In this document: positions 4,960-20,458 of the stretch, in pieces
How the letters are laid out: every line of letters begins with the position of its first letter
Numbering within the stretch: the stretch's first letter is position 1
From: Deltaproteobacteria bacterium
Lineage (GTDB): Bacteria; Desulfobacterota; Binatia; DP-6
Direction of reading: 5' to 3'
DNA: 38,751 nt
Assembly: GCA_005879205.1 (NCBI GenBank)
Contig: VBLD01000111.1
Span: 1 to 38,751 of the forward strand
Notes under the pieces: model-generated
What the model was told of the DNA's origin: nothing
Databases searched by the model: none
What the model saw: only the letters and a program-made list of their open reading frames with translations
Translations under genes and position numbers: made by a program

Positions 4960-5562
4960 GTGCCTCCGGTGCCGTCTGAGGGTTTGCGGGCCGTGCCGTC
5001 TAGCGACTGGGAGCTCGTCCGGCGCGCCCGTGAAGGTGATCGTGACGCGTTCCGCGAGCTGGTCGAGCGCTACCAACGCCGGGTGGCCTCGCTCGCATTG
5101 GGCATGCTCCGGAGCCGGGAAGACGCGCTCGACGTCGTGCAGGAGACTTTCGCCAAGGCCTATCAGCACCTCGACCGCTTCAAGGGCGACTCGGGCTTCT
5201 ACACCTGGCTCTACCGCATCGCGTTCAACCTCTGCATCGATCAGCAACGCCGCGAAGGCAAGCTCGCCGACCTCCGCCCCCCGCACGACGAGACCGGTTC
5301 GATGGAGCCGCCGCCCACGGTCGACGGTCCACCCCCGGACGAACCCTTCCAGCGCGTCCGGAGCGCCGAGATCGGCCAGCGGCTCGAGCAGGCGATGCGC
5401 GAGTTGACCCCCGATCACCGCGCGGTCATACTCCTCCGCGAAGTGCAGGGCCTCTCCTACGAGGAGATCAGCCGAGTCCTGGAATGTCCGAAGGGCACGG
5501 TGATGAGCCGGCTCCACTACGCCCGCCGCCAGCTCCAGTCGCGCCTGCGGGAGCTCCTGTGA
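4960..5562 (+). CDS. ECF-type RNA polymerase sigma-70 factor
   Basis: Region 2 DALDVVQETFAKAYQHLDRF...YTWLYRIAFNLCIDQQRR and region 4 HTH LSYEEISRVLECPKGTVMSRLHYARRQL. GTG start at 4960; an in-frame GTG at 4993 is an alternative. Confidence 0.9.
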   Translation: MPPVPSEGLRAVPSSDWELVRRAREGDRDAFRELVERYQRRVASLALGMLRSREDALDVVQETFAKAYQHLDRFKGDSGFYTWLYRIAFNLCIDQQRREGKLADLRPPHDETGSMEPPPTVDGPPPDEPFQRVRSAEIGQRLEQAMRELTPDHRAVILLREVQGLSYEEISRVLECPKGTVMSRLHYARRQLQSRLRELL

Positions 5563-6056
5563 CGTGCGCGGACGTCGAGCGGCTGGCGGACGCGTTCGCG
5601 GACGCCGAGCTGCCGGCGCCGACGATGCTCGCGGTCGCACGTCATGCGGCCGGCTGCTCAACCTGCGACGAGTCGGTCCGCCGGCTGCAGGCCCTGCAAG
5701 AGTCGGTGGCACAGGCGGTGCGTGCCGAGACCGACGCGCTCGACCTCTCCGGGGTATGGCCGGCCGTCGCGGCCGCCGCGGACCGGGTCGACGCCCGCCG
5801 GAGCTGGAGCCGACGGGCGCGAGCCCTGCCGGCCGCGTTGGCCGGGGCGCTCGCGGTGGCGGCGGCCGCCGTCTTCTGGATGCAAGGCGTCCGTCCCGCC
5901 GTGGAGTCGGGCCCCGCGGTCGTCGTCTCCCGGACCCTTCCCAACCAGGCGTACATCGACCGCCTGGCAGGCAAGGACCTGCGGCTCCGGCGCGAGCCGC
6001 GGAGCGGGACGACGATCATCTGGGTCAATGCCACCGCCGGAGACCTCGGGCGGTGA
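5559..6056 (+). CDS. Anti-sigma factor (zf-HC2 type), membrane-anchored
   Basis: GTG at 5559 overlaps the sigma stop (GTGA). N-terminus VTCADVERLADAFADAEL...RHAAGCSTC carries the H-x3-C-x2-C motif of ZAS-like anti-sigma domains. One TM segment (LPAALAGALAVAAAAVFW). Confidence 0.7.
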   Translation: MTCADVERLADAFADAELPAPTMLAVARHAAGCSTCDESVRRLQALQESVAQAVRAETDALDLSGVWPAVAAAADRVDARRSWSRRARALPAALAGALAVAAAAVFWMQGVRPAVESGPAVVVSRTLPNQAYIDRLAGKDLRLRREPRSGTTIIWVNATAGDLGR

Positions 6057-6502
6057 ACCGCGCTGCGGCCGTGGCGCTCGGCATGCTCGGTGCGGCCCTG
6101 CCGATCGCCGCCGCCGTGGCCCTGGGGATGGAGGTGCAGGTGGTGAGCGTACGCGCCGCCGAGCGCGGCTCTTCGGACGCCGAGCTCCAGCCGGTGCGCG
6201 CCCGCCTGCGGCGGCTCGTCGGCTACCGGTCCTTTCGGGTCGTCCACGAGGAACGCCGGCAATGCAGCTGGCGCAACACCGAGGAGTTTGCGATCCCCGG
6301 CGGCCGCTCGCTCCGCGTCATGCCGAAGGGGATGCAGGACGAGGCCGTCGTGATGCAGGTCCGCTTGCTCGACGGGCGGCGCCGGCTCGTCGACACCGAC
6401 GTCCGGCTGCGCAATCGGGGCACGATGCTGCTCGGCGTCGGCCACCGGGCGGGCCGCGCGGACGGAGCCTTGATCATCATGCTGAAGGCGGAGGCGCAAT
6501 GA
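6053..6502 (+). CDS. Hypothetical secreted protein, co-operonic with the ECF sigma/anti-sigma pair
   Basis: GTG at 6053 overlaps the anti-sigma stop (GTGA). Signal-peptide-like N-terminus VNRAAAVALGMLGAALPIAAAVALG, then a beta-rich domain (...FAIPGGRSLRVMPKGMQDEAVVMQVRLLDG...GALIIMLKAEA). I recognise no family. Confidence 0.55.
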   Translation: MNRAAAVALGMLGAALPIAAAVALGMEVQVVSVRAAERGSSDAELQPVRARLRRLVGYRSFRVVHEERRQCSWRNTEEFAIPGGRSLRVMPKGMQDEAVVMQVRLLDGRRRLVDTDVRLRNRGTMLLGVGHRAGRADGALIIMLKAEAQ

Positions 6503-6807
6503 TTGGCTGGCCAACGGAGTGGCTGGACGAGGTAGGCAATCAGCTGTGGGCGGTGCTCGGAGCGTTCCGGGGCGAGGTCAGCCGTCAAGGGGTGATGACG
6601 CTCTTCCGGCCCGTCGCTCCTTTCAACCGGCCCGACTTCCTGGCGCCGGCCGTGACCATCGCCGCGTTGCTGTCGGTGCTCCTCCTCTCGGGTGTGGCGG
6701 TCGCCGCGCTCGGCGCCTTCGTGACCGCCCTGATCGCGCTCTACCTCTTGCTCGTGCAGGTGTTCGGCGTGACCATCGAGGTGCACCCCTTCGGTACCGG
6801 CGCGTGA
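6499..6807 (+). CDS. Hypothetical small membrane protein
   Basis: ATG at 6499 overlaps the upstream stop (ATGA). The C-terminal half has two hydrophobic helices (APAVTIAALLSVLLLSGVAVAALGAFVTALIALYLLLVQVF). Confidence 0.55.
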   Translation: MIGWPTEWLDEVGNQLWAVLGAFRGEVSRQGVMTLFRPVAPFNRPDFLAPAVTIAALLSVLLLSGVAVAALGAFVTALIALYLLLVQVFGVTIEVHPFGTGA

Positions 6808-6811
6808 CGGC

Positions 6812-7186
6812 GTGAGCGCGCGTCCCGTGGTGCGACGAAGCACGCCGGTCGGCCTGCTCCTCGTCGTCGCGGGTGTGACGCTCGCCGTCGCCCAGGAGCG
6901 GCCAACCCACGAGCTCTCGCACCCACCGACGCGGGACCAGGCGAGTCCATCCGGGGAGCGGACCGAAACCCGGGAATTCCTCGACAACGCCCGCCGGCTG
7001 TATGACCGGGCGTACAAGCTGCGAGAGAACGCCGAGGCCTTGCGCGAGGGCAACCGCTACGAGGAGGCCGAGGCGTTCGATGAACGCGCGCTGAACCTCG
7101 AGGACCAGGCCCGCCAGTACGAGCACCGCGCCGAGGAATCGCGGCTACCCGCGACGAGCCACCGCCCCGCCCCGATCGAGGAGTGA
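6812..7186 (+). CDS. Hypothetical secreted coiled-coil protein
   Basis: GTG start 5 nt after the previous stop. Signal peptide RRSTPVGLLLVVAGVTLAVAQE, then a charged helical region (RRLYDRAYKLRENAEALREGNRYEEAEAFDERALNLEDQARQYEHRAEE). Strong G/C third-position bias supports coding. Confidence 0.5.
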   Translation: MSARPVVRRSTPVGLLLVVAGVTLAVAQERPTHELSHPPTRDQASPSGERTETREFLDNARRLYDRAYKLRENAEALREGNRYEEAEAFDERALNLEDQARQYEHRAEESRLPATSHRPAPIEE

Positions 7187-7190
7187 ACCC

Positions 7191-7250
7191 GCGGCCGATC
7201 AGGCCGCGCGCATCGCCCACAGCGCGGCCGATCAGGCCGCGCGCATCGCC
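7191..7250. repeat. Tandem direct duplication of the sat 3' terminus (27-nt unit, two copies, 6-nt spacer)
   Basis: gcggccgatcaggccgcgcgcatcgcc occurs at 7191-7217 and again at 7224-7250. The second copy encodes the last residues and the stop codon of sat on the minus strand. Confidence 0.85.
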
Positions 7251-8407
7251 TTGATCAGCACGTCGGCCACCTCCGGCCTGCTGAACTCCTTCGGCGGCCG
7301 CTCGCCCCGCGACAGCATCTCCCGCACCTTCGTGCCCGACAGCGCCACGTGCTGGCTCGCATCGTGGGGACACGTCTTGGTGGACGCCATGCTGTCGCAC
7401 GTCCGGCAAAAGAACGTGTGGTCGAAGCGGAGCGGCATGATGCCGATCTCCTCCGGCGCGAACTGATCGAAGATCTTCTGCGCGTCGTACGTGCCGTAGT
7501 AGTTGCCCACGCCCGCGTGGTCGCGCCCGACGATGAAGTGGGTGCAGCCGTAGTTCTTCCGCATGATGGCGTGGAAGATCGCCTCCTTGGGGCCGGCATA
7601 GCGCATGTTGGCGGGCAGCACCGAAAGGAGCGTCCGGTCGGCGGGGTAGTACCGCTCGAGCAGCACGCGGTAGCACTCCATGCGCACGTCGGCCGGGATG
7701 TCGTCGCCCTTCGTTTCACCGACCAGCGGATGGAGAAGCAGCCCGTCGACGATCTCGAGCGCGCATTTCTGGATGTACTCGTGTGCGCGGTGCACGGGGT
7801 TGCGCGTCTGGAAGGCGACGATGCCCTTCCAGCCGCGCTCCCGGAACGCGGCGCGCGTCTGGCGCGGCGTGAGACGGTGCTCGGGGAAGGGCAGGTCGGC
7901 GGGATGGCGGAGCAGCGTCACGCGGCCGCCGAGGTAGACCTCGCCCTGCGCCAGGACCGCGGCAACGCCCGGATGCTTCGGATCATCGGTCCCATAGACC
8001 GAAGTGACCTCCCGACGTTTGTCGGGCCGGTAGATCTCCCGCAGGTGAAGGACCGCGAGCGTCGCGCCCGCCTCGTCCTGGAGCGCGACGTCGGCGCCCA
8101 CGGCGAGCCGCCGCGCCTCGTCGGCGCCGACGCCGAGGGTCACCGGGATCGTCCACACGACTCCGCTCGCGAGACGCATCCGGTCGACGACGCTCCGGTG
8201 GTCGGCCTCGCCCATGAACCCGTCGAGCGGGCTGAAGCCGCCGATCACGATCATCTCGAGATCGGAGAGCGCCCGGCGGTCGAGCCGGAGTGCCGGCAGA
8301 CGTCCGGCTTCGCGCTCCCAGCGAGCGCGCTCGGCCTGCGTGGCCTCGCGCTCGACGAGCACGCCGCCGTGCGGCGCGATGGCATCCTCGAGTCTGTCGT
8401 TCGTCAT
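7232..8407 (-). CDS. sat: Sulfate adenylyltransferase (ATP sulfurylase, homo-oligomeric Sat type)
   Basis: 391 aa with the hallmark [12 protein letters not shown] and GRDHAGVG motifs and a PUA-like N-terminal domain. Last gene of the riboswitch-controlled operon. Confidence 0.95.
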
Positions 8408-8447
8408 CCGGTCACCCTACGAGCACGTTCCGAGAGATGCAAACGAA

Positions 8448-9905
8448 TCAGCGGCCCACGCCGAGGCCGATCAGCGGCCAGTACCACGTGGCGGTCGCCA
8501 TGAAGGCGAGCCACGCGGCGGCGACCAGCACGAAGCCGGGAACGAGCATGTCGCGCAGACGCAGGTAGCCGGACGAGTACGCGATGGCGTTCCCCGGTGT
8601 GCCGACCGGCAGCGTGAAGGCGAGGCCCGCGGGAAGCGCCACCGCCGGCGCCATCACCCGCGGGTCGATCCCGAACTGCTGCGCGATGCCGATCGCCACC
8701 GGCATGAGCAGCGCCACCACGGCCGAGTGGCTCATCGCCTCGGTCAGGAGGATGCCGATGGCCGAGATGACGGCGAGCACCTGGAGCGGGGTCTGGGCCC
8801 AGCGGCTCACGGTGACGCTCGCGACCCAGCCCGAGGCGCCCGAGCGCGTCATCGCCGCACCCAGCGCGATCGCCCCGCCGTACATGAGAAGGATGCCCCA
8901 GTTCACGTACTGCTCGAGGTCGGGCCAGGTGAGGAGGCGGAGGAGGAAGATCACGACCACGCCGGCGAGCGCGATGTTGGCGAGGCCGAACTCCTCGCCG
9001 CCCACGATCCAGGCGACGAGCGTCGCCAGCATGACCAGGCCGATCGACTTCTCGCGTACCGAGGGCCGCCCCATGCGCAACAGCTTCTGCGCGATCACCG
9101 CGTCGGCATCGCGCACCGAGTCGATGTCGATCGGGAAGAACCGCACGATCACCTGCCACCCCACCACGAGCAGGATGGCGACGATCGGCCAGGCGGCGAG
9201 CGTCCACTCGGCGAAGCTGTAGCTCTGCCCGCTGGTCTCGCGCAGCATGCCGATCGCGAGCGGCGCCCGCCCGCCGCCGAGCAAGGTCGCGATGCCGCCG
9301 ATCTGCGTGCCCCAGGCCATGGCGAGGAAGAGCGCGCGCGCATAGTTGCTGCCCTCCCGCGGCAGGCGGAGCACGCGCGCGATCTCGAGCGTGATCGGGA
9401 AGGTCATCGCGGCGACGGCGTGCTCCGACATGAAGAACGACATGAACGCGTTCATGAGGAAGAGCGAGAGGAGGAGCGTCCGCGGCGTGTGACCGAAGCG
9501 GCGCAGGATCGTGATCGCGATGCGCGACGAGAGCCCGCATTTGATGAGCGCGGCGGCGAGGATGAAGGCCCCGAGGATGAAGAACACCGCCTCGTTGCCG
9601 AACAGCGCGTAGGTCTCCTTGGCCGAGATGACCCCGGTCGTGGGCAGCAGCACGATGGCGAGCAGGCTCGTCACCATGAGCGGCAGGACGCTCGTCACCC
9701 AGTAGACGAGACAGAGCGCGAAGATGGCGAGCGCGTTCTGGCCCGCGGGCGAGAGACCTTCGGGCTGCGGCATGGTGCGGACCATCAGGTACACGACCAG
9801 CCCGGTGCTCAGCAGGATCGGCCGGTACGTCCGCTCGGCGAGGATGCGCCACAGCGGCCGGGTGTCGATCAGGATCTCGGCGCGCGATGGCTGCGGGACG
9901 GCCAC
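8448..9905 (-). CDS. SLC13/DASS-family anion permease (probable sulfate or thiosulfate uptake)
   Basis: C-terminal 485 codons of track ORF 8448..11171; polytopic membrane protein (LPLMVTSLLAIVLLPTTGV..., ...AFTLPVGTPGNAIAYSSGY). GTG at 9905 overlaps the stop of the upstream gene by 1 nt. An internal ATG (MVRTMPQPEG) is an alternative start. Confidence 0.85.
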   Translation of the reverse strand: MAVPQPSRAEILIDTRPLWRILAERTYRPILLSTGLVVYLMVRTMPQPEGLSPAGQNALAIFALCLVYWVTSVLPLMVTSLLAIVLLPTTGVISAKETYALFGNEAVFFILGAFILAAALIKCGLSSRIAITILRRFGHTPRTLLLSLFLMNAFMSFFMSEHAVAAMTFPITLEIARVLRLPREGSNYARALFLAMAWGTQIGGIATLLGGGRAPLAIGMLRETSGQSYSFAEWTLAAWPIVAILLVVGWQVIVRFFPIDIDSVRDADAVIAQKLLRMGRPSVREKSIGLVMLATLVAWIVGGEEFGLANIALAGVVVIFLLRLLTWPDLEQYVNWGILLMYGGAIALGAAMTRSGASGWVASVTVSRWAQTPLQVLAVISAIGILLTEAMSHSAVVALLMPVAIGIAQQFGIDPRVMAPAVALPAGLAFTLPVGTPGNAIAYSSGYLRLRDMLVPGFVLVAAAWLAFMATATWYWPLIGLGVGR

Positions 9906-11149
9906 TAGACGTGCGAGGCGTCGAAGGACTCGCCCACCGTCCGGACCCGCAGGCGGCGGCGGAAGCGGGCGAGACTGCGGGCGGCGAGCGCACCCAGGCG
10001 GAAGCGCGTGAGCCGCTGGACGGCCACCGCCAGCCGCGCCCCGTCGCCGGCGAAGTGACGGGCCTCGAGCGGAGTGATGCCGAGCGACAGGTCGCGCATC
10101 CATCCCATGTTGATGCGGCGCTCCTTCACGGCGCGGTAGAGGCGGGCGAGGACCGGCGCCACCTCCGCCCCGTCGAGCGACGCGCGCGGCCCGACCGCCT
10201 CGGGCGTGCGGAACACGGACACGACGGGGACGACGGCCATGGCGGCGAGCGCGTCGATGCCGCGCATGGTCGACTGCGGCGGCTCGAGGCCGACCACCAG
10301 ATCGGTCCACACGGTGCCGCTCGGAAACACCTCGGCCGCACGGGCGAGCGCCTCGAGGTACCGCTCCCGCCCGATGTAGCGTGCGCGCCCGACGCAGTGC
10401 CGTTTGAGGGCGTCCTCGTCGAACATCTCGAGGTTGTAGCTGAGCGCATCGACGCCCATGGCGTAGGTCCGGTCGATCCACCGGTTGTCGCGCGGTGGGT
10501 GGACCTGGGTGGCGATCAGCGTGTCGAAGTGGCGTCGGACGGCCTCGACGTAGGGCGCGAGAAAGCCCATGCCGCCGTCCTCGGCGTCGAAGAACCCGCT
10601 GTTGAAGTAGACGAACTCGGCCGCGCCCTCGTCGAAGGCGGCACGGACCACCTCGAGGACCTCCTCGACCGGTGCCGCGGCATCGCGCTCCGCCGTCGCC
10701 GGCGCACCTTCGACGCAGAAGCGGCACGGCGTCCCGCGCAGGCTGAAACCGCAGGCGCCGGCGGGGTTGATCAGGAGGTGGCTCCCATGTACGGCCGCGA
10801 CGCGCCACATCGGCGTGCCACGCGTCGTGTGCCGCTCGTAGAAGCGCGGCTGCGGGACGGCCCGGACCTCGACGCGGAGGGTCTCGACCCCGTCGGGGTC
10901 GCGGCGCACGAGGACGACGCGGTCGCCGTCCACGAGCAGGCGGAAGGGCGAGCCGGCCGTCGCGCGCTCCTCGACCGGCGCGCTCACCCACACCCCCTGC
11001 GGCAGCACGAGATCGAGCGAGCGCGCCACGGCGTCGGCCCCCGTGCTCGACCGGAAAGGAGCCGAGTGGATGCGCACCGAGGGATCGAGGACGAGGCCCC
11101 GCTCGGCGAGCTCGAGCTTCAGATAGGCGGGGTGGGTTGCGGGTCTCAC
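9905..11149 (-). CDS. Radical-SAM-like TIM-barrel protein with atypical Cys motif and a unique N-terminal domain
   Basis: 414 aa. The cysteine triad is CGFSLRGTPCRFC (C-x8-C-x2-C), not the canonical C-x3-C-x2-C. Downstream segments resemble the radical SAM barrel (GVDALSYNLEMFDEDALKRHC..., TDLVVGLEPPQS). The first ~110 aa are a beta-rich domain I do not recognise. The GTG start overlaps the upstream stop (GTGA). Confidence 0.7.
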   Translation of the reverse strand: MRPATHPAYLKLELAERGLVLDPSVRIHSAPFRSSTGADAVARSLDLVLPQGVWVSAPVEERATAGSPFRLLVDGDRVVLVRRDPDGVETLRVEVRAVPQPRFYERHTTRGTPMWRVAAVHGSHLLINPAGACGFSLRGTPCRFCVEGAPATAERDAAAPVEEVLEVVRAAFDEGAAEFVYFNSGFFDAEDGGMGFLAPYVEAVRRHFDTLIATQVHPPRDNRWIDRTYAMGVDALSYNLEMFDEDALKRHCVGRARYIGRERYLEALARAAEVFPSGTVWTDLVVGLEPPQSTMRGIDALAAMAVVPVVSVFRTPEAVGPRASLDGAEVAPVLARLYRAVKERRINMGWMRDLSLGITPLEARHFAGDGARLAVAVQRLTRFRLGALAARSLARFRRRLRVRTVGESFDASHV

Positions 11150-11796
11150 GCCGTGCCCCCGCAGAGCTCACACCCCGCGCCCTGCGGAACCGGGAGGGCG
11201 ACGCACGCGCCGGTGGCGACGTCGAGATGCCTGGCGCGGCCGGCGTTCGGTGCGCCGAGGAGCAGACCGAGCGTTTCGGCGGCGGCGAGCGCGCCGACGG
11301 CGAGAGCGAGCGAGGCGGCGAGGGCGGGCGTGGCCGGTGCGGCGTCGCCGGTGGCGAGCGTCGCGGCGGGGCAGCAGGCGCCGCACGGCCGCCGCACGGC
11401 GCTCGCGACCACGCCGCGTGCGCCGCGCCACACGCCGACCACGAACGGCCGGCCGGTCGCGCCCGCGTGCCGGCCGAGGGTGACCGCCGACGCCGGCCTG
11501 CCGGTGAGGTCGACGATGACCGCGGCGTCGGGCGGCGGCGCGCCCTCGGCGTGGCGGGTCAGGCGGCAATCGGGGGACAGTTCGGGGAGGGTCGCCGGAC
11601 CGCAGAGGAGATCGAGGGCGCCGACGCCGGCGCGTCCGATCAGGGTCGCGGCCGATCGCGCCGCCTCGCCGTCGCCGGCCACCACGACGCGGGCGGCGAG
11701 CAGCCGCTGCTGGCCGCGACCGCCCACCTCGGGAAGGATGATCTGGCGGCTGTAGCGGTCGATCCGTGCGTCCGTGAGCACGCCGGTGGAGATCAT
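11146..11796 (-). CDS. Degenerate ThiF/MoeB-family (E1-like) paralog, probably non-catalytic
   Basis: 216 aa. ThiF-type N-terminus RIDRYSRQIILPEVGGRGQQRL. The nucleotide loop is VVVAGDGEAA instead of GxGxxG, and the D-x-D...NLxRQ segment is absent. Both CxxC pairs are kept (CGAC, CELC). The ATG at 11796 overlaps the NIL gene stop (ATGA). Confidence 0.75.
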   Translation of the reverse strand: MISTGVLTDARIDRYSRQIILPEVGGRGQQRLLAARVVVAGDGEAARSAATLIGRAGVGALDLLCGPATLPELSPDCRLTRHAEGAPPPDAAVIVDLTGRPASAVTLGRHAGATGRPFVVGVWRGARGVVASAVRRPCGACCPAATLATGDAAPATPALAASLALAVGALAAAETLGLLLGAPNAGRARHLDVATGACVALPVPQGAGCELCGGTA

Positions 11797-12065
11797 TCGA
11801 TCACGTTCTTCTCGATCGGCTCGACGGTGATGCCCTGCTCGCGAAACCATGCGACGGCGGCGTCGATCGCCTCGCGCGTGCCGTCGAGCTCGAGCGCGAT
11901 GATCCCGATGTCCTCGCCGACGCTCGCGCTGCGGATGTTCGTCACCACGTCGAACTTGCGACTGCACCAGTAGATGAGCGGCTCGCGAACGAGGCGCTTG
12001 GGATAGGTGAGGTAGAACTTGTCGCGGATCTTCCCGCCCTTGGCCGACGCCGTGCCGCGCTTCAT
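11793..12065 (-). CDS. Stand-alone NIL domain protein
   Basis: MKRGTASAKGGKIRDKFYLTYPKRLVREPLIYWCSRKFDVVTNIRSASVGEDIGIIALELDGTREAIDAAVAWFREQGITVEPI matches the NIL fold seen at the MetN C-terminus and in NIL-ferredoxins. The ATG at 12065 forms an ATGA overlap with the stop of the alternative-frame cysM tail. The track's upstream ATG at 12098 is possible. Confidence 0.75.
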   Translation of the reverse strand: MKRGTASAKGGKIRDKFYLTYPKRLVREPLIYWCSRKFDVVTNIRSASVGEDIGIIALELDGTREAIDAAVAWFREQGITVEPIEKNVIE

Positions 12066-12987
12066 CCGGGCTCCTCGATAGCGCGCCAGCCGAGCCATAG
12101 GTTGGTCGAGAGGGTGCCACCTGGAGCCCGGCCACGTGCGCCGCCCCGCACGACTGGCCGACGAGCAAGCCCTCCTCCCGGCCGAGGCGGTAGACCATGG
12201 CGTAGGCGTCCTCGGTGGAGATACCGAGCTTCAGGTCGAGCTCCTGCTCGTGGTAGATGCCGGGAACGATCGAGGACGCCATGTGCTTGAGCCCCTCGAG
12301 CCCGTGGAAGGCGTCCTCCGGCTCGGCGGCGATCACCTGCACGGCGGGGTTCTGCCCCTTGAGGTAGCGTCCCGTCCCCATGATCGTGCCACCCGTCCCG
12401 ATGCCGGCGATGAAGTGGGTCACGGTGCCGCCCGTCTGCCGCCATATCTCCGGGCCGGTCGTCTCGTAGTGGGCCTGGGAGTTGGCCGGATTGTTGTACT
12501 GGTCCGGCTTGAAGTAGCGCTCGGGATCCTCGGCGAGAAGCTTGCGGCAGAGGCGGATCGCGCCGTCGGAACCCTCGAGCGGGTCGCTGTAGACGACCTC
12601 CGCGCCGAAGGCCGCCACCACCCGCTTGCGCTCGAGACTGACGTTGCCGGGCATCACGAGCTTCACCGGGTAGCCGAGCGCGGCGCCCACCATGGCGAGC
12701 GCGATGCCGGTGTTGCCCGAGGTGGAATCGAGGATCGTCTTGCCCGGGACGAGCCGGCCGCCGGCCAGGCCGTCGTCGATCATCTTGAGCGCCGGGCGGT
12801 CCTTCACCGAGCCGCCCGGGTTGAAGCCCTCGAGCTTGGCCCACATCCGCACCCCGGCGGCGACGCCGTCCCGCACGTGGCGGATCTCCAGGAGCGGGGT
12901 GTTGCCGACCAGGCTCGCGACGGAGAGGGCGGCGAGCGGCCCCTCCGTCGGAGCCGTCGGCCGGGCCAGGGCGGCGACGGACGTCAT
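12062..12987 (-). CDS. cysM: CysM-like PLP-dependent cysteine synthase (fold type II), with a frame break near the 3' end
   Basis: Start MTSVAALARP at 12987. PLP-Lys motif GGSVKDRPAL, TSGNTG, GIGTGGT, LLVGQSCGAAHVAGLQVA. After about residue 290 the frame has no stop until 11146 and becomes Arg-rich junk across the NIL gene. The expected C-terminal LST motif (GGTLSTNLWLGW...EEPG*) lies in another frame and ends at 12062-12064. Gene callers may instead report a 613-aa ORF 11146..12987. Confidence 0.65.
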
Positions 12988-12998
12988 GTCGCGCGCCG

Positions 12999-13274
12999 CT
13001 AGGCGCCTCCGGCGATCGCCGGCACGATCGACACCTCGTCGCCCGCTTTGATCGGCGTGTCGAGCTGCTTCAGAAAGCGGATGTCCTCGCCGTTCACGAA
13101 GAGGTTCACGAAGCGTCGCACTTCGCCCTTCTCGTCGCATATCCGCTCCCGGATGCCGGGGTAGCGCCGGTCGAGGTCGCTCACCAGCGCGGCGACGGTT
13201 CCGCCCTCCGCCTCGACCGCCTCGGCGCCCGCGGTGTACTTCCGCAGCGGCGTCGGGATCCTCACCTGAGCCAT
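12999..13274 (-). CDS. ThiS/MoaD-family sulfur carrier protein ending in GG-Ala
   Basis: 91 aa with beta-grasp carrier features (VRIPTPLRKYTAG...VNLFVNGEDIR...GDEVSIVPAIAGGA). The C-terminus is Gly-Gly followed by one extra Ala. AGGAGG lies 7-12 nt upstream of the ATG. Confidence 0.9.
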   Translation of the reverse strand: MAQVRIPTPLRKYTAGAEAVEAEGGTVAALVSDLDRRYPGIRERICDEKGEVRRFVNLFVNGEDIRFLKQLDTPIKAGDEVSIVPAIAGGA

Positions 13275-13316
13275 GATGACGGTTCCTCCTTTCGGTTGCC
13301 AGACGGACGAAGGCCG

Positions 13317-14566
<1,250 letters not shown>

Positions 14567-14570
<4 letters not shown>

Positions 14571-15307
14571 GGGACGTCACTCCTTCCGGCATTGGCGGAT
14601 TCGTGCTCGGCGATGGCCGTGCACGCGGTGCAGCGGGGGTTCGGGGCGAGCGGTACGGTCCGCCAGCTCCCCGTCCAGGCGTCGATCCGGAGCAGGCGGT
14701 TCGTCCAGGCCGGCGTCGTGCCGACAAGGAGCCGGACGGCTTCGGCCGCCTGGAACGCGCCGGCGAGGGCGACCACGGGTCCGAGGACGCCCGCCTCCTG
14801 GCAGCTCGGCGTCTCCTCGGGTGGCGGCGGCTCCTCGAAGACGCAGCGATAGCAGGCGCTCGCTCCCGGGACGACGGTCATGAGCTGCGCCACGAAGCCG
14901 AGGACCCCGGCGTGCACGAGCGGCACCCGAGCCGCCAGCGCCGCATCGTTGAGGACGAACTTGGCGGCGACCGTGTCGGTGCCGTCGACGAGGCAGTCGA
15001 AGCCGCGGAGGAGGGCCACGTGGCCCGGGCCGAACCGCTCGCACCAGGTCTCGACGCGGAGCCCGGGCGCGAGCCGTCGGAGCCGCTCGGCTGCGACCGC
15101 GACCTTCGGCCGGCCGACATCGGCGGACTCGTAGAGCAGCTGCCGATGGAGATTGGAGATCTCGATCGGGTCGGGATCGACGAGCCCGAGCGTTCCGATG
15201 CCCGCCTGGGCGAGCGCGAGAGCCGCGGGCGACCCGAGCCCACCGACGCCGACCACGAGGACGCGGCGGGTGGCGAGGGCAGGTTCGCAGGCATGGCGCA
15301 CGAGCAT
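14567..15307 (-). CDS. MoeB/ThiF-family adenylyltransferase (E1-like), canonical
   Basis: 246 aa. VLVVGVGGLGSPAALALAQAGIGTLGLVDPDPIEISNLHRQ, CYRC and CTAC zinc pairs. No rhodanese domain. First gene after the riboswitch. Confidence 0.9.
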
Positions 15308-15310
15308 GGC

Positions 15311-15340
15311 AACAAAAAACCCCTTCCCAGAGGAAAGGGG
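15311..15340 (-). terminator. Intrinsic terminator / expression platform of the SAM riboswitch
   Basis: The minus-strand RNA reads CCCCUUUCC-UCUG-GGAAGGGG followed by UUUUUUGUU. It ends 3 nt before the ATG of the E1 gene, so the stem may also occlude any ribosome-binding purines (GGAAGGGG). Confidence 0.7.
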
Positions 15341-15356
15341 TTCACCAGCGTGCGAA

Positions 15357-15467
15357 CCTTATCTTCCGCAGGCTCTTGCGAGCGCCGCGTCGGAATTAGC
15401 ACCAGCGTCCCTCGGGACCGGTTGCTGTGGCTTCGCCGGGCCGGGCCCTCCGCCACTCTGGATAAGG
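15357..15467 (-). promoter_or_regulatory. SAM-I (S-box) riboswitch aptamer
   Basis: Minus-strand RNA: CCUUAUCCAGAGUGGCGGAGGGCCCGGCCCGGCGAAGCCACAGCAACCGGUCCCGAGGGACGCUGGUGCUAAUUCCGACGCGGCGCUCGCAAGAGCCUGCGGAAGAUAAGG. It contains the conserved S-box blocks CUUAUC.AGAG, GGAGGG, GCAACC, GGUGCUAAUUCC and AGAUAAG. P1 (CCUUAUC/GAUAAGG), P2 (UGGC/GCCA), P3, and P4 closed by a GCAA tetraloop can all be drawn. Confidence 0.9.
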
Positions 15468-15495
15468 CTATGTTTTTTCGTCTCTCCCGGGCCGG

Positions 15496-15524
15496 AACTA
15501 ACCCGAAAGGTTCGATTGTGTCAA
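15496..15524 (-). promoter_or_regulatory. Candidate sigma-70 promoter for the riboswitch operon
   Basis: On the minus strand: TTGACA (perfect -35), a 17-nt spacer, then TTAGTT (weak -10), about 30 nt upstream of riboswitch P1. Confidence 0.35.
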
Positions 15525-15682: not shown

Positions 15683-16552
15683 CTAGTAGGGGGAGGGGGT
15701 GGCCGGGCCGTTGTCGGGATATGCGGACACCGCGCGCGGGAGCTGCTGGCGGTCGGCCCTGCCCTGAAGCTCGTCGAGTCGCTGCACGAGTCGCGGGAGC
15801 GGGTCGTCGCCGTCGAGGGCAGCGACCTCCGTGCCGAGCCGGCGCCGGGCCTCGGCAGCCAGTGGACCCTCCGGGTGGTGATGGGCCAGGGTGGCGAGCG
15901 CGAGGGTGGCGTCCTCGGGCTCCTGGCTTCTGGCGTAGGTCTCCGCGAACACGTACAGCGCCTGCGCGGTGGCATCCGTGTCGGGGTAGTCGGACAGCAG
16001 GCTGCGCAGGCGTGCCTCGGCGGCCTTCATGTTGCGGTGCCTCAGGTAGTACTGCGCGATGCCCGACTCGTGCATCGCCATCGCCTCGCGGCACTCGCGA
16101 ATCCGCAGGCGTGCCTTCTCCGCCCACGGGCTCGACGGGAAGCGGTCGACGAGGTTCTGGAAGTAGGTATTCGCATTGGCCGCTGCCTGCTGGTCGCGGT
16201 CGCTGGTGCTCGCCTGCGCCAGATAGGCCATGCCGAGGTGATACTCGACGACCGGCAGGTTCGAGCTGGTCGGGTGCATGCGCTCGAAGTCACCGAAGGA
16301 GGCGATCGCCTCGGCGTAGTGCGCGGCGAAGTAGTGCGCCTGCCCGATCTTCAGCTCCGCCTCCTCGGCGTTGGCGTCGAACGGGTGCTGGTCGAGGAGC
16401 GCCTTGTAGCGCTCGATGGCGACTTCCCAGGCCTCGTCGTGGTACGCCGAGTTGCCTTCGCTCCAGAGCTTGTCGGAGGGGATCAGCCGCTTCTTGCCCG
16501 CGCAGCCGACCGCCAGGATCCCGATGGCCAGCATGGCCAGGACACGGCGCAC
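15683..16552 (-). CDS. bamD: Outer membrane protein assembly factor BamD (TPR lipoprotein)
   Basis: Lipobox ILAVGCAG after a basic n-region (VRRVLAMLAIG). TPR-like repeats with the BamD pattern (YHDEAWEVAIERYKALLDQHPF..., AEKARLRIRECREAMAMHESGIAQYYLRHRNMKAA). Start is GTG 16552 or ATG 16534. The upstream part of the 451-aa track ORF is junk. Confidence 0.85.
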   Translation of the reverse strand: MRRVLAMLAIGILAVGCAGKKRLIPSDKLWSEGNSAYHDEAWEVAIERYKALLDQHPFDANAEEAELKIGQAHYFAAHYAEAIASFGDFERMHPTSSNLPVVEYHLGMAYLAQASTSDRDQQAAANANTYFQNLVDRFPSSPWAEKARLRIRECREAMAMHESGIAQYYLRHRNMKAAEARLRSLLSDYPDTDATAQALYVFAETYARSQEPEDATLALATLAHHHPEGPLAAEARRRLGTEVAALDGDDPLPRLVQRLDELQGRADRQQLPRAVSAYPDNGPATPSPY

Positions 16553-16564
16553 CAACACGCGGGG

Positions 16565-16593
16565 ACGGTAGTGGAAGCCGTATTTGCAGTCAA
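16565..16593 (-). promoter_or_regulatory. Candidate promoter upstream of bamD
   Basis: On the minus strand: TTGACT, a 17-nt spacer, TACCGT, located between the CPBP stop and the bamD start. Confidence 0.3.
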
Positions 16594-16605
16594 ACCGCGA
16601 CGCGA

Positions 16606-17227: not shown

Positions 17228-18004
17228 TTGAGCGAACTCTTTCGCATGTGGAGCAACACGCGGATGGTGGTCCTTACGGCCATCTGTGCGGCCCTCTATG
17301 CGGCCATCCTCATTCCCTTCAAGGTCGTGCCCCTGATCCCCGGAATCACCGAGTTCAGGCCCGCCAACGCGATTCCGGTCGTATGCTCGTTCCTCTTCGG
17401 TCCGGCCGCTGCCTGGGGATCGGCGCTGGGGAACCTGATCGGCGACTTCTTCGGCGGTCTCGGGCCGGGAGACCTCTTCGGCTTCCTGGCGAACCTGCTC
17501 TATGGCCTCGTCCCCTATGCGGTCTGGGAAGCCGTGACCGACGCGCCGCCCGTGCCGGAGGGCCCCCTCGCCTCGCTCGGCCTGCTACTCGTCATGGGGG
17601 TGGCCGCCATGCTCTGTGCCACGGTGGTGGGCTGGGGGCTGCACCTCCTCGGGTTCCACCCGTTCACGGTCCTCGGCACCGTCGTGCTGATGAACAACCT
17701 CGTGGTGGCCGTCGTGCTCGCCCCCTTCCTGCTCGCGGTGCTCTACCCCCGGGTGCGGCGCGCGCGGCTCCTCTACCGGGACCTCCTCGGCCCCCGCCGC
17801 CCGCTCCCGCGCTGGCGGGCCGCGCTCGGCGCCACGCTCGTCCTGGTCGGAACGTGCACGGCGTTCGCGGCCGGGGAGCTGATCGCGGGCGGGCGCTGGG
17901 TGGCGCCGTGGGCAGCGTATGAGACGGCGAGCCGGCGCCTCGAGGTCGGCCTCGGGCTCCTGCCCCTCCTGGGCCTTGCCATCGTCGGCCTGGCGCTCCT
18001 GTGA
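17228..18004 (+). CDS. ECF transporter S component, QueT-like, with extra C-terminal TM segments
   Basis: FRPANAIPVVCSFLFGPAAAWGSALGNLIGDFFGG resembles the QueT family core. Followed directly by EcfA and EcfT genes. TTG start at 17228; ATG at 17246 is an alternative. Confidence 0.7.
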   Translation: MSELFRMWSNTRMVVLTAICAALYAAILIPFKVVPLIPGITEFRPANAIPVVCSFLFGPAAAWGSALGNLIGDFFGGLGPGDLFGFLANLLYGLVPYAVWEAVTDAPPVPEGPLASLGLLLVMGVAAMLCATVVGWGLHLLGFHPFTVLGTVVLMNNLVVAVVLAPFLLAVLYPRVRRARLLYRDLLGPRRPLPRWRAALGATLVLVGTCTAFAAGELIAGGRWVAPWAAYETASRRLEVGLGLLPLLGLAIVGLALL

Positions 18005-19689
18005 CGCGCGCGACCGCCGGCGTCGCCTCTGCCGTCACGGTCCGCGACCTCGGCTGCACCTATGCGGGGGCGACGCGCCCGGCGCTCGACGGCCTGACGT
18101 GCGAGCTGCCGGCCGGTGGCCTGGCCGTCGTCATGGGCGCGACGGGGGCGGGCAAGTCGACGCTCGCCCGCTGTCTCACCCGCCTCGTGCCCTGCTTCCT
18201 GCCTGCCGACCTCCGCGGCGAGATCCGGCTGCTCGGGCAGCCGATCGACGGCGCCCGCGTCGGCGCGCTCGCCGGCACGATAGGGATGGTCTTCCAGGAC
18301 TTCGAGGCCCAGCTCTTCTCGACCGACGTGACCCAGGAGATCGTCTTCGGCCTCGAGCACACCGGTGTCGCGCCCGACCAGATACCGGAGCGGGTGACCC
18401 GCGCGCTCGCCGCCGTCGGGCTCGCCGGCTTCGAGGGACGCGATCCGACCACGCTCTCGGGCGGGGAGAAGCAGCGGCTCGCGATCGCCGGGCTGCTCGC
18501 GCTCCGCCCGCCCATCATGGTGCTCGACGAGCCCACCACCGACCTCGACCCCACCGGGCGCGCCGAGGTGTTCGACGTGCTCGGCAGGCTCCGCGCCGAG
18601 GGCCTCTCGCTGGTCCTCATCGAGCACGACACGGCGGCGGCCGCCGCCGCCGACCTGCTCGTCCTGCTGCGCGACGGCCGGATCGCGGCGAGCGGCGCAC
18701 CGGCGCGCCTCCTGGCGGACGTCGATGCGTGTCTCGCCGCGGGCGTACGGCCGCCCGACGTCTGCCGCGTCTTCGCCATGCTCGGTCTCGTCGAGCCGCC
18801 GCTCGACGTGACGGCGGCCGCCGAACGGCTGCGGGCGCGCGGGCTCGTGCCTCGGGTCTCCGACGAGCCCGTGAGCAGGCCAGCTGCGGGATCGGCGATC
18901 ATCGAGATGCGCGGACTCGGCCACCGCTACCCCGACGGCCGGCGCGCTCTCGCCGACGTGAGCCTGAGCATCGGGCGCGGCGAGTTCATCGCCCTCGTCG
19001 GTCCCAACGGCTCGGGTAAGACGACGCTCGCCAAGCACCTGAACGGGCTCCTCGCGCCGACCGAGGGGCGGGTGACGCTCGAGGGACGCGACGTGGCCGG
19101 CCTGCCGCTCGAGACGCTCGCCCAGCGGGTCGGCTACGTCTTCCAGGACCCGGATCATCAGCTCTTCGCGGCGACGGTCGCCGAGGAGGTGGCCTTCGGG
19201 CCCCAGAACGTCGGCCTTCCCGCCGCCGAGGTCGAGGCGCGCGTCGCGGAGGCGCTGGCCGCCGTCGAGCTCCGCGAGCGCGACGCCGACCCGTTCCTTC
19301 TCGACAAGGGCGCCCGGCAGCGCCTCGCCGTCGCCGCGATCCTCGCGCTCCGCCCCGACGTCCTGGTGCTCGACGAGCCGACGACGGGCCTCGATTTCCG
19401 CGAGCAGGAGCGCATGCTCGACCTGCTCGACCGGCTCCATGCAGCGGGACGCACGGTCATCATCATCACGCACACGCCGTGGGTGATTGCCGAGCATGCC
19501 CGGCGCGTGGTGCTGCTGAAGGGCGGACGGATCCGCTACGACGGGCCGCTGCGCCCGTTCTTCGCCGACGAGGGGCTGGCGGCGGAGGCCGCCTTCCGGC
19601 CGCCCGAGGTGACGCGCCTCGGACGCCTCCTCGGCTGCACGCCCCTCTCCGTCGCGGAGCTGGTCGCCTGGATCGGGCGGGGCGCCTGA
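18001..19689 (+). CDS. Fused tandem ECF transporter ATPase (EcfA1-EcfA2-like)
   Basis: Two ABC cassettes: Walker A GATGAGKST and GPNGSGKTT, signature LSGGEKQRLAIA (the second is degenerate, LDKGARQRLAVA), Walker B MVLDEPT and LVLDEPT. The GTG start overlaps the S-component stop (GTGA). Confidence 0.9.
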   Translation: MTRATAGVASAVTVRDLGCTYAGATRPALDGLTCELPAGGLAVVMGATGAGKSTLARCLTRLVPCFLPADLRGEIRLLGQPIDGARVGALAGTIGMVFQDFEAQLFSTDVTQEIVFGLEHTGVAPDQIPERVTRALAAVGLAGFEGRDPTTLSGGEKQRLAIAGLLALRPPIMVLDEPTTDLDPTGRAEVFDVLGRLRAEGLSLVLIEHDTAAAAAADLLVLLRDGRIAASGAPARLLADVDACLAAGVRPPDVCRVFAMLGLVEPPLDVTAAAERLRARGLVPRVSDEPVSRPAAGSAIIEMRGLGHRYPDGRRALADVSLSIGRGEFIALVGPNGSGKTTLAKHLNGLLAPTEGRVTLEGRDVAGLPLETLAQRVGYVFQDPDHQLFAATVAEEVAFGPQNVGLPAAEVEARVAEALAAVELRERDADPFLLDKGARQRLAVAAILALRPDVLVLDEPTTGLDFREQERMLDLLDRLHAAGRTVIIITHTPWVIAEHARRVVLLKGGRIRYDGPLRPFFADEGLAAEAAFRPPEVTRLGRLLGCTPLSVAELVAWIGRGA

Positions 19690-19693
19690 CGCC

Positions 19694-20458
19694 GTGGCGC
19701 TCACCCTGTACGTCGCGGCGCCGACTCCGCTGCACCGCCTGCACCCGGTCACCAAGCTCGGGCTCCTCGCCGCCTTCGTGGTCGCGGCCTTCATGGTCGA
19801 CCGTCCGCTCCTCCTCGTGCCGCTCGCGGCGGTGATCGCCGTCCTGATGGTGCTCGCCCGCGCCCTGCCGAACGTGCGCCGGCTCCGGGTGATGTTCCTC
19901 CTCGTCTTCTTCTTCACGCTCGTCGTCTGGACGTTCTTCTACCAGTCGGTCCTCGTGCCGACGTATGGCGGCTTTCTCTACGGCCTCTCGACGGCGATCC
20001 GGCTCGACACCTTCCTCGCCACCGGCATCCTCTTCCTGAGCACCACGCGCGTCGAGGAGGTGGCGTATGCGCTCGGCCGGCTCGGCCTGCCCTACACGAT
20101 GGGTTTCACGCTGACGCTCGCCTTTCGCCTCGTGCCGGTGTTCTTCGACGCGGCGCTGAGCGTCGTCCAGGCGCAGCGCTGCCGCGGCCTCGAATTCGGG
20201 CGCGGCGGCGTGGTCGCCCGGCTCCGCCGCTTCGTGCCGGTCATCGTGCCGGTGCTGATCGGCGCTCTCCGGCGCGCCGATCGCATGGCGATGGCGCTCG
20301 AGCTGCGCGGCTTCAACTCCGGCCGGCCGCGCACGACGTACCTGCGCGCGCGCGCCGGCGCCGCCGACGTGCTTGCCGGCACGCTCGCGGTCGCGACGGT
20401 GGCGACATACGTCGTGCTGTGGGCCGCCGGCATCGGCACGCTCGCGGCGCATCCTTGA
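19694..20458 (+). CDS. ecfT: ECF transporter transmembrane component EcfT (CbiQ family)
   Basis: 254 aa, polytopic, with N-terminal LHRLHPVTKL and conserved ARxxR-type coupling helices (AQRCRGLEF, ALRRADRMAMALELRGF). Confidence 0.85.
   Translation: MALTLYVAAPTPLHRLHPVTKLGLLAAFVVAAFMVDRPLLLVPLAAVIAVLMVLARALPNVRRLRVMFLLVFFFTLVVWTFFYQSVLVPTYGGFLYGLSTAIRLDTFLATGILFLSTTRVEEVAYALGRLGLPYTMGFTLTLAFRLVPVFFDAALSVVQAQRCRGLEFGRGGVVARLRRFVPVIVPVLIGALRRADRMAMALELRGFNSGRPRTTYLRARAGAADVLAGTLAVATVATYVVLWAAGIGTLAAHP

Follow-up and report, generated by a model that had tools for sequence, protein, structure and literature searches.

How sulfur taken up as sulfate is carried to cysteine and homocysteine is the question raised by a nine-gene array in contig VBLD01000111.1 of a Binatia bacterium (GenBank assembly GCA_005879205.1, labeled Deltaproteobacteria bacterium), of which we analyzed a stretch of 38,751 nucleotides (nt), hereafter called the window. 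The array lies on the minus strand at 7232-15307, downstream of an S-adenosylmethionine (SAM)-I riboswitch aptamer. It joins genes for sulfate uptake and activation to those for a ubiquitin-like sulfur carrier, its E1 activating enzyme, and two pyridoxal phosphate (PLP) enzymes, one ThrC-like and one CysM-like, together with a NIL-domain protein, a degenerate ThiF paralog (pseudo-E1), and a variant radical-SAM protein. We read the region as one SAM-repressed operon for carrier-protein-dependent sulfur assimilation, built from separable modules, and give this reading a probability of about 60%. At its core the operon falls within the known carrier-thiocarboxylate pathways, MetM/MetO and CysO/CysM, and the combination of parts is not described in the literature that we found, including work on Binatia sulfur assimilation, on CX8CX2C proteins, and on MSMEG_0568. 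The coding regions, assigned with Pfam and NCBIfam, and the elements of the leader are listed below in the direction of transcription, with protein lengths in amino acids (aa).

15519..15524, minus strand: candidate -35 box TTGACA, read from the sequence and offered only as a lead, with a weak -10 TTAGTT after 17 nt
15356..15468, minus strand: SAM-I (S-box) riboswitch aptamer (RF00162, 77.3 bits against a gathering threshold of 44.4, E 1.2e-16, full-length model 1-108)
15311..15343, minus strand: predicted intrinsic terminator of the expression platform, a 12-bp GC-rich hairpin (15343-15317) followed by U6 (terminator scan and folds)
14567..15307, minus strand: active E1, a MoeB/ThiF-type adenylyltransferase of 246 aa (PF00899, 235 bits, profile positions 18-237 only)
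13317..14570, minus strand: ThrC-homologous PLP enzyme of 417 aa with an N-terminal Cys4 ribbon (PALP, 243 bits; NF006050 "threonine synthase," 315 bits)
12999..13274, minus strand: sulfur-carrier protein of the ThiS/MoaD/CysO family, 91 aa (PF02597; C terminus AIAGG-A, ...AGGA)
12062..12987, minus strand: CysM-like cysteine synthase gene, disrupted (TIGR01138 cysM, 341 bits over residues 23-292)
11793..12065, minus strand: stand-alone NIL-domain protein (PF09383), 90 aa by the gene call in the related locus L081, 101 aa from the first ATG at 12098
11146..11796, minus strand: pseudo-E1 of 216 aa (PF00899, 34.8 bits, residues 15-63 against profile positions 1-49 only)
9905..11149, minus strand: variant radical-SAM-fold Fe-S protein of 414 aa (NF045502 "variant_rSAM," 160 bits against a cutoff of 125; PF04055, 33.8 against 29.5)
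8448..9905, minus strand: DASS-family anion:Na+ symporter of 485 aa (PF00939, 222 bits; TIGR00785, 281 bits)
7232..8407, minus strand: sulfate adenylyltransferase (sat) of 391 aa (PF01747 and PUA_2; NF003166, 576 bits)

A preliminary description of this DNA had given the same gene order and minus-strand array, every element of which was recovered by Pfam, NCBIfam, and Rfam. Its view that a SAM-riboswitch module links the uptake and activation of sulfate with a carrier pathway containing ThrC-like and CysM-like enzymes is supported by these assignments and by the survey of related loci presented below, and its statement that no described system has this combination agrees with our literature search. 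The genes are tightly packed: 4-nt overlaps occur at the E1/ThrC, NIL/pseudo-E1, and pseudo-E1/radical-SAM junctions, the radical-SAM and permease genes share a TAGTG, and the other intergenic gaps are 42, 11, and 40 nt. A scan of the operon for internal terminators and promoters detected no strong one. The window has a G+C content of ~70%, and its nearest relatives are metagenome-assembled genomes (MAGs) labeled Candidatus Binatia or "Deltaproteobacteria."

To survey conservation, an aligned set of radical-SAM proteins was run against a single genome from each GTDB species, which yielded 80 loci; these were processed by tblastn with the nine window proteins, clustering of open reading frames (ORFs), and Pfam searches of representatives. 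Presence and absence are counted over the 52 informative loci that have at least 5 kb upstream of the radical-SAM gene. The window order (E1-ThrC-ThiS-CysM-NIL-pseudo-E1-radical-SAM-DASS-sat) repeats in many Binatia and Myxococcota MAGs, and because the arrangement recurs in dozens of species-level genomes, it is more than random adjacency; the radical-SAM, pseudo-E1, and NIL genes, which the preliminary description had grouped with the carrier, E1, and PLP genes, accompany them across many genomes. The system is modular, with the carrier, permease, E1, and radical-SAM protein as its core and with separable cysteine and homocysteine branches. The carrier gene is found in 51 loci, DASS lies directly downstream of the radical-SAM gene in 42, sat is present in 27, and CysM, the cysteine branch, is optional (40 loci). 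The ThrC-like gene, the NIL gene, and the riboswitch are all present in 30 loci and all absent in 18, leaving 4 exceptions: L034 and L053 have no NIL gene, L043 has the riboswitch only, and the ThrC-like gene of L065 is fragmented. A second type of locus, without the ThrC-like and NIL genes, was seen in L005, L007, L016, L024, L030, L031, L037, and L064; a minimal type, E1(::TusA)-ThiS-pseudo-E1-(JAMM)-radical-SAM-DASS-ferredoxin, in L050, L052, L054, L060, and L062; and a rich type, to which a small sulfite reductase, TusA, JAMM, USP, CysH, and CysQ are added, in L044, L048, and L056. The operon family thus spans uncultured soil, groundwater, and marine lineages, including Binatia, Myxococcota, Desulfobacterota-like groups, Nitrospirota, and others, with the caveat that the taxon labels of the MAGs are uneven (L067 is labeled "Nitrosopumilus" and L030 "Margulisiibacteriota").

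The leader provides the most direct indication of what the operon responds to. The SAM-I aptamer is the sole Rfam family above threshold in the 38.7 kb, and the minimum-free-energy fold of the whole leader contains a four-way junction and the terminator, whose hairpin begins 13 nt past the aptamer and whose end falls 10 nt short of the E1 ATG; an aptamer and terminator ahead of the operon are as first described. With a predicted hairpin and U6 tract between aptamer and start codon, the expression platform is able to terminate transcription, and a hairpin at 15358-15339 that overlaps the terminator is a candidate antiterminator. When SAM is plentiful, transcription should stop ahead of the first gene, and we infer that the operon forms one transcript under SAM control. 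A consensus promoter scan upstream of the operon called no promoter, and the lone TTGACA at 15524-15519 is visible there.

In related loci the riboswitch follows one branch of the system. In each of 7 ThrC-containing loci Rfam found a single SAM-I element, at the 5' end, and it found none in 7 loci without a ThrC-like gene. A covariance model built from the SAM-I elements of related loci and then run against all loci returned 36 matches, in 36 related loci and at their 5' ends. All 32 informative loci scored as ThrC positive have the riboswitch, as does 1 of the 19 lacking a ThrC-like gene; L065, which also has it, was scored as ThrC negative only because its ThrC-like copy is frameshifted. 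SAM control had been proposed for the module as a whole; that proposal holds for the ThrC-like/NIL branch but not for the rest, since the riboswitch tracks that branch only. The sole locus with a SAM riboswitch (L043:5078-5202) but without a ThrC-like gene carries two CysM paralogs with 42% and 64% identity to the CysM-like protein of the window, one of which may therefore serve the methionine branch.

The ThrC-like gene lies 42 nt from the carrier gene in the window, and the two are neighbors in more than 30 loci. The ThrC homolog MetM of Streptomyces albulus is reported to form homocysteine from O-phosphohomoserine together with the carrier MetO (Hasebe et al. 2024, via bioRxiv 10.1101/2024.10.14.618325, PMC12172450), metM is reported to lie behind a SAM riboswitch (PMC12172450), and MetM/MetO/MoeZ/Mec is treated as an accepted pathway (GapMind preprint, bioRxiv 10.1101/2024.10.14.618325). 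Because MetM is likewise a carrier-using ThrC homolog behind a SAM riboswitch, the ThrC-like protein is, from its context, best read as a MetM-type carrier-thiocarboxylate-dependent homocysteine synthase, which would convert O-phosphohomoserine and the carrier thiocarboxylate to homocysteine, as MetM/MetO does. The likeness is one of family and context: a ThrC-homologous PLP enzyme stands beside a ThiS/MoaD carrier behind a SAM riboswitch, and O-phosphohomoserine is the expected substrate. The operon departs from MetM/MetO in its E1, which has no rhodanese domain and is apparently divided between one active and one inactive protein; in the lack of a Mec/JAMM protein in the window; and in its additional genes for CysM, NIL, the variant radical-SAM protein, the sulfate permease, and sat. 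In two Myxococcota-type loci (L050 and L052), a gene identified by sequence as S-adenosylhomocysteine hydrolase directly precedes an E1::TusA gene, a further link to the methionine cycle.

The NIL protein matches PF09383 at 55.7 bits against a threshold of 24, with no other profile matched; an exact look-up of the 101-aa ORF returned no record, and the later start chosen by gene callers gives 90 aa. The PDB offers no relatives of it apart from the methionine-binding C2 domain of MetN (3dhx, E 1.5e-5); it aligns to MetN residues 273-339, with an N-I motif opposite MetN N295-I296. We take the C2 domain of MetN to bind methionine for trans-inhibition and N295 to be needed for this. In L032, L035, and L042, NIL is fused in frame to the carrier right after Gly-Gly; in L032 (8433-8948) carrier and NIL form a single 171-aa ORF (...AIAGG-APIKKK...), and the other two loci are alike. 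A product of this kind, a ubiquitin-style precursor, would have to be cleaved behind Gly-Gly. A NIL-ferredoxin protein (MA1822) is required alongside DUF39 (MA1821) in an unrelated homocysteine route of methanogens and Desulfovibrio (PMC5764234), where a NIL protein is likewise specifically tied to homocysteine formation; our operon has neither DUF39 nor a ferredoxin domain, the carbon substrate and the enzyme (ThrC-like) differ, and some relatives have NIL joined to the carrier in one protein. From these relationships, NIL is most likely a methionine- or homocysteine-binding subunit with a regulatory or handling role in the homocysteine branch.

The carrier itself points toward the cysteine pathway of mycobacteria. 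Its best PDB relative is CysO of Mycobacterium tuberculosis (3dwg_C, E 1.5e-22), although it also matches the MoaD and SAMP models of NCBIfam, and its thiocarboxylate chemistry is assigned by analogy, as are the probable substrates of both PLP enzymes. The operon is similar to the M. tuberculosis CysO-CysM-Mec-MoeZ system (structures 3dwg and 3dki) in that the carrier is nearest to CysO, a CysM-type gene follows it directly, and a JAMM hydrolase occurs in related loci; it differs in having an E1 without a rhodanese domain, a frameshifted cysM in the window, a tie to sulfate uptake and to a radical-SAM protein, and, where a ThrC-like gene occurs, SAM control. Before it could be adenylated, the CysO-like carrier must shed the terminal Ala after Gly-Gly, and a CysM-like enzyme would form cysteine as in CysO/CysM. 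That one carrier may serve both PLP enzymes, as the preliminary description suggested, accords with the single carrier gene found here and its closeness to CysO. The C termini of the carriers vary among loci (GG, GGA, GGR, GGIS, GGMC, GGCFK, and others). A third pathway, HcyS-HcyF-HcyD-MetY of Wolinella succinogenes, was reportedly described by Krishnamoorthy and Begley in 2011; it shares with the operon a carrier residue beyond Gly-Gly, clustering with sulfate assimilation genes, and an E1 without a rhodanese domain. Here, however, the homocysteine synthase is ThrC-like (fold type II) rather than MetY, the window has no JAMM protein, and NIL, pseudo-E1, and radical-SAM genes are added.

The cysM-like gene is not intact in the window. 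A DNA alignment to L001, L002, and L004 revealed a 55-nt frameshifting deletion between 12114 and 12113, with only ~2 nt of microhomology at the junction. It takes out the conserved ...RTLREGTVVVLFPDFGDRY... segment and displaces the C-terminal ...LSTNLWLGWRAIEEPG* to another frame, while homologs end in ...GQSxGAAxVAALxVARxLxxGTxVVLFxDFGDRYLSTNLWLGW...; the cysM frame of the window instead runs through NIL into the pseudo-E1 frame, with its first stop at 11146. Three independent contigs, L081 (a JGI soil metagenome), L082 (ENA), and L083 (NCBI GCA_005879425.1), are 99.8 to 99.9% identical to the window across the operon and differ at the 12113/12114 site only, and all three carry an intact CysM-like gene of 326 aa, with its stop codon overlapping the start of NIL. 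In its natural form the operon therefore has nine intact genes, and the frameshift is either a strain-specific lesion or an assembly error. The nine-gene operon originally described is right as to the family and position of the CysM-like gene, but the frameshift had been missed.

The two ThiF-family proteins complement each other in their motifs. The active E1 has GVGGLG, SNLHRQ, DGTD, two CxxC pairs, and the SCQEAG cysteine but consists of the ThiF domain only, with neither a rhodanese domain nor the R[YFW]xR[QH] motif of the arginine finger; it starts just 17 residues before the P-loop, so the N-terminal R-Y-x-R-Q segment is missing. The pseudo-E1 retains RYSRQ and two CxxC pairs, but its P-loop reads AGDGEA, the GxGxxG being lost, and SNLxRQ is gone. 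In the 37 loci that have both genes, the finger motif is missing from the active E1 in all 37 and borne by the pseudo-E1 in 34, while all 13 E1s of paralog-free loci carry both motif sets. In three further loci (L007, L022, and L063), tblastn found the active E1 alone, and that E1 also lacks the finger; an ORF directly upstream of the radical-SAM gene of L007 carries RFSRQ, and no E1 paralog was found in L022 and L063. The finger arginines, Arg11 in ThiF and Arg14 in MoeB, act in trans on ATP at the neighboring subunit, and yeast Tcd1-Tcd2 is a heterodimeric precedent built alike (PMC13139853).

This complementary loss suggests a heterodimeric, split E1, and the most economical reading of the motifs is that E1 and pseudo-E1 form an obligate heterodimer with one active site. 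The 246-aa E1 would provide all adenylation motifs, and the paralog, which cannot bind ATP, would give the arginine finger and a Zn site. The same division of labor, with one subunit keeping the adenylation site and a dead partner supplying the N-terminal arginine finger, is known from NAE1-UBA3, SAE1-SAE2, and Tcd1-Tcd2 (PMC13139853); unlike those protein-conjugation or tRNA-modifying enzymes, ours would be a bacterial sulfur-carrier E1, its subunit genes are five genes apart, and the interaction is proposed from motifs. The pseudo-E1, initially taken for an independent recruit, is better read as the inactive, finger-donating half of this split E1. Across all loci, E1 genes encode 241 to 313 aa, and none of them in any locus has a rhodanese domain. 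TusA seems to stand in for that domain as the sulfur relay in some lineages: E1 is fused to TusA in L050, L060, and L062 (295 to 301 aa), and in L089 (3576-5927) a sulfite reductase is fused to TusA (783 aa).

The least familiar component is the radical-SAM protein, which by its motifs and its AlphaFold model is predicted to have a radical-SAM fold with a three-Cys [4Fe-4S] site. The model (predicted local distance difference test [pLDDT] of 84) has a radical-SAM partial barrel after a beta-rich domain of ~110 aa. The cysteine motif is C133-x8-C142-x2-C145 (CX8CX2C) and not the canonical CX3CX2C; it is kept in 74 to 75 of the 80 loci, and position 144, F in the window, is aromatic in 74 (F in 64, Y in 9, and W in 1). 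Further marks of the family are a VVGLEP strand that is GxIxGxxE-like, C252 in RHCxGR, which is almost invariant, and, at the C terminus, a basic tail (RRRLRVR) of high conservation. C252 was considered as a universal persulfide site and dropped because it is replaced in L068, L072, L073, and L075. CX8CX2C clusters are catalogued at RadicalSAM.org as uncharacterized variants (PMC9477430), and the family comprises 224 representatives below E 1e-30 at 50% clustering. Foldseek returned LipA/LIAS, RlmN, ThiH, BioB, and MiaB as the top PDB matches, with a probability of 1.0 for LipA, RlmN, ThiH, and BioB, but with template modeling (TM) scores of 0.4 to 0.55 that mark the similarity as generic, and a profile of the alignment found no relative among PDB sequences. 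The protein resembles LipA, BioB, MiaB, and TtuA-TtuB in its partial barrel and three-Cys site and in being paired with a ubiquitin-like sulfur carrier; it differs from them in its CX8CX2C motif, the absence of auxiliary-cluster cysteines and of any PDB sequence relative, and the added N-terminal beta domain and conserved basic tail. Distant paralogs (28 to 29% identity) in the Nitrospinales/Nitrospinota loci L076, L078, L079, and L080 have neither the Fe-S cysteines nor the carrier/permease context, and since they retain a C-terminal RRxLR(V/I)R...SFxS, the tail is the most universal feature of the family.

The company kept by this gene constrains what it could do. Its most constant partner is the carrier. 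It is fused to DASS in an 881-aa protein (four sequences on five contigs), as in the L089 cluster (ThiS-NIL-CysM-E1-Sir::TusA-rSAM::DASS-CysD-CysN), but it is also present without a following DASS gene in L003, L004, L014, L015, L019, L066, L069, and L070, for which reason we rejected a role as a mere permease accessory. A JAMM gene lies next to it in 16 related loci, one sequence is a JAMM::radical-SAM fusion, and L066, L069, and L070 hold ThiS-JAMM-radical-SAM mini-clusters with no CysM or ThrC gene nearby. The gene occurs alongside CysH, Sir, TusA, and JAMM in the rich-type loci (L044, L048, and L056), for which reason we rejected it as a general stand-in for CysH/Sir, and together with CysH also in L039, L046, L073, L074, and L075. 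Since it co-occurs with JAMM, CysH, Sir, and TusA, it replaces none of them, and the preliminary idea that it takes the place of the JAMM protease fails on the adjacency and fusion of the two.

The remaining genes supply sulfate and activate it. The DASS symporter is probably a sulfate permease, with sulfate assigned as its substrate from context; it would import sulfate, which sat would convert to adenosine 5'-phosphosulfate (APS), and reduction to the sulfide level would need genes outside the window. The sat position is filled in three ways across loci, by the lineage of the window, by a second sat lineage (34 to 37% identity, PF01747), or by CysD/CysN, and three interchangeable activation solutions at one position are good evidence for sulfate assimilation as the function under selection. 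CysH was found in 8 related loci and Sir in 7 plus L089; tblastn found no homolog of CysH, Sir, TusA, JAMM, or USP anywhere in the window, in agreement with the original report that APS reductase and sulfite reductase are missing from it; a rhodanese is likewise absent from the window. A USP gene follows DASS in 22 related loci (e.g., L007:12742-13224); in the window, which lacks it, sat comes 40 nt after the permease.

How these parts move sulfur onto the carrier admits several explanations. Our best guess, held tentatively, is that the radical-SAM protein either transfers sulfur to the carrier adenylate bound to E1 or resolves this intermediate by reduction. It would then do the job of the MoeZ rhodanese domain that E1 here lacks; this is the least certain step of the scheme. 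It is improbable that the protein instead consumes the thiocarboxylate, with the carrier as donor, as a LipA/BioB/MiaB-like thiolating enzyme making another sulfur compound: its nearest folds are sulfur-inserting radical-SAM enzymes, and the JAMM fusion and the mini-clusters without CysM or ThrC would fit, but the structural similarity is generic, auxiliary-cluster cysteines are missing, and the constant neighbors are sulfate uptake and activation genes, with no candidate substrate pathway in the clusters. A role as a cytoplasmic regulatory or gating subunit of DASS that senses SAM or redox state, by analogy with the NIL/C2 domain of MetN in the import of methionine, would account for the translational coupling at TAGTG, the adjacency of the two genes in 42 of the 52 loci, and the true N-terminal fusion to the permease, in which the basic tail lies just ahead of the first transmembrane segment; the persistence of the gene where no DASS follows, its greater constancy with the carrier, and the conservation of many polar residues in the barrel interior make this decidedly improbable. 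Very unlikely, too, is a new reductive enzyme that replaces APS reductase and/or sulfite reductase in Binatia-type genomes and passes APS sulfur straight to the carrier with no free sulfite or sulfide. The window and ~40 Binatia or Myxococcota loci do have permease, sat, and radical-SAM genes with no cysH or sir within 10 kb, L089 has CysDN, Sir::TusA, and radical-SAM::DASS with no CysH called, the protein is fused to or adjoins the sulfate permease, and it has many conserved Arg residues; yet it coexists with CysH, Sir, and TusA in the loci listed above, the CysH and Sir genes of Binatia may lie elsewhere in the genome, and conserved SAM-binding features would be superfluous in a plain reductase. 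That in Binatia-type genomes a radical-SAM protein docked on the permease, with the split E1 and carrier, moves APS sulfur onto the carrier without APS reductase and siroheme sulfite reductase is a very long shot; if true, sulfate would be turned into cysteine and methionine by a carrier-bound route, and the protein would be a new sulfur-assimilating enzyme.

The remaining alternatives concern the E1 pair and the pathway as a whole. Rather than the second subunit of a split E1, the pseudo-E1 could be a duplicate in decay or serve some other partner as a scaffold, a view we consider unlikely. It is reduced to 120 to 170 aa without CxxC pairs in Myxococcota-type loci, it always adjoins the radical-SAM gene and not E1, and the finger is dispensable in MoeB and ThiF (PMC13139853); but the complementary motif loss spans several phyla, paralog-free E1s retain all motifs, and the gene is still an open frame with coupled start and stop. 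Scarcely credible is the reading in which the ThrC homolog is an ordinary threonine synthase, the carrier and E1 serve thiamin or molybdenum cofactor synthesis, and the gene order is incidental. The threonine synthase model of NCBIfam is indeed passed and the carrier also matches MoaD and SAMP models, but no thiG, thiH, moaE, moaA, or moaC was found in the window or the loci, the carrier's closest solved relative is CysO, its neighbors are cysteine synthase, sat, CysH, and Sir, and the leader is a SAM riboswitch tied to the presence of the ThrC-like gene. The cofactor reading was rejected on the missing partner genes and on the latter correlation.

Several points nevertheless weigh against the operon-wide reading of carrier-dependent, SAM-repressed sulfur assimilation. 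The ThrC homolog scores above the NCBI cutoff for ordinary threonine synthase (NF006050), and the carrier ends in GG-Ala yet the window has no JAMM protease. The absence of APS reductase and sulfite reductase from the window by tblastn leaves the path from APS to carrier-bound sulfur incomplete here, and TusA could, in the most complete clusters, already perform the sulfur relay that we assign to the radical-SAM protein, which has no auxiliary-cluster cysteines and whose sole extra conserved cysteine, C252, is lost in the four loci named above. The arginine finger is reported to be nonessential in MoeB and ThiF (PMC13139853), so the heterodimer is plausible but not compelled. Finally, all loci were found via a radical-SAM anchor, and the co-occurrence counts ignore phylogeny.

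To our knowledge, only a few cultured bacteria are known to make cysteine and methionine by protein-thiocarboxylate routes, and how the carrier acquires sulfur in vivo is poorly understood, above all when E1 lacks a rhodanese domain. Three leads emerge from the locus: an uncharacterized CX8CX2C radical-SAM clade tied to a sulfur carrier and, in some lineages, fused to a sulfate permease; a bacterial E1 apparently split into active and arginine-finger-donating subunits, parallel to eukaryotic ubiquitin-like E1s; and a second, independent link between NIL and homocysteine synthesis. For annotation, ThrC homologs in such a context are probably homocysteine synthases and not threonine synthases, which would change auxotrophy predictions for MAGs.

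Elsewhere in the window, positions 17228-20458 encode an ECF-type transporter comprising a QueT-like S component, a duplicated ABC ATPase, and a CbiQ-type T component, with no riboswitch detected upstream of it by Rfam. The operon is flanked (15686-16600 and 4960-7186) by BamD/YfiO upstream and by two small conserved ORFs, an anti-sigma/ECF sigma pair, and polA downstream. These housekeeping flanks are syntenic in many related Binatia loci, suggesting vertical inheritance of the operon rather than carriage on a mobile island.

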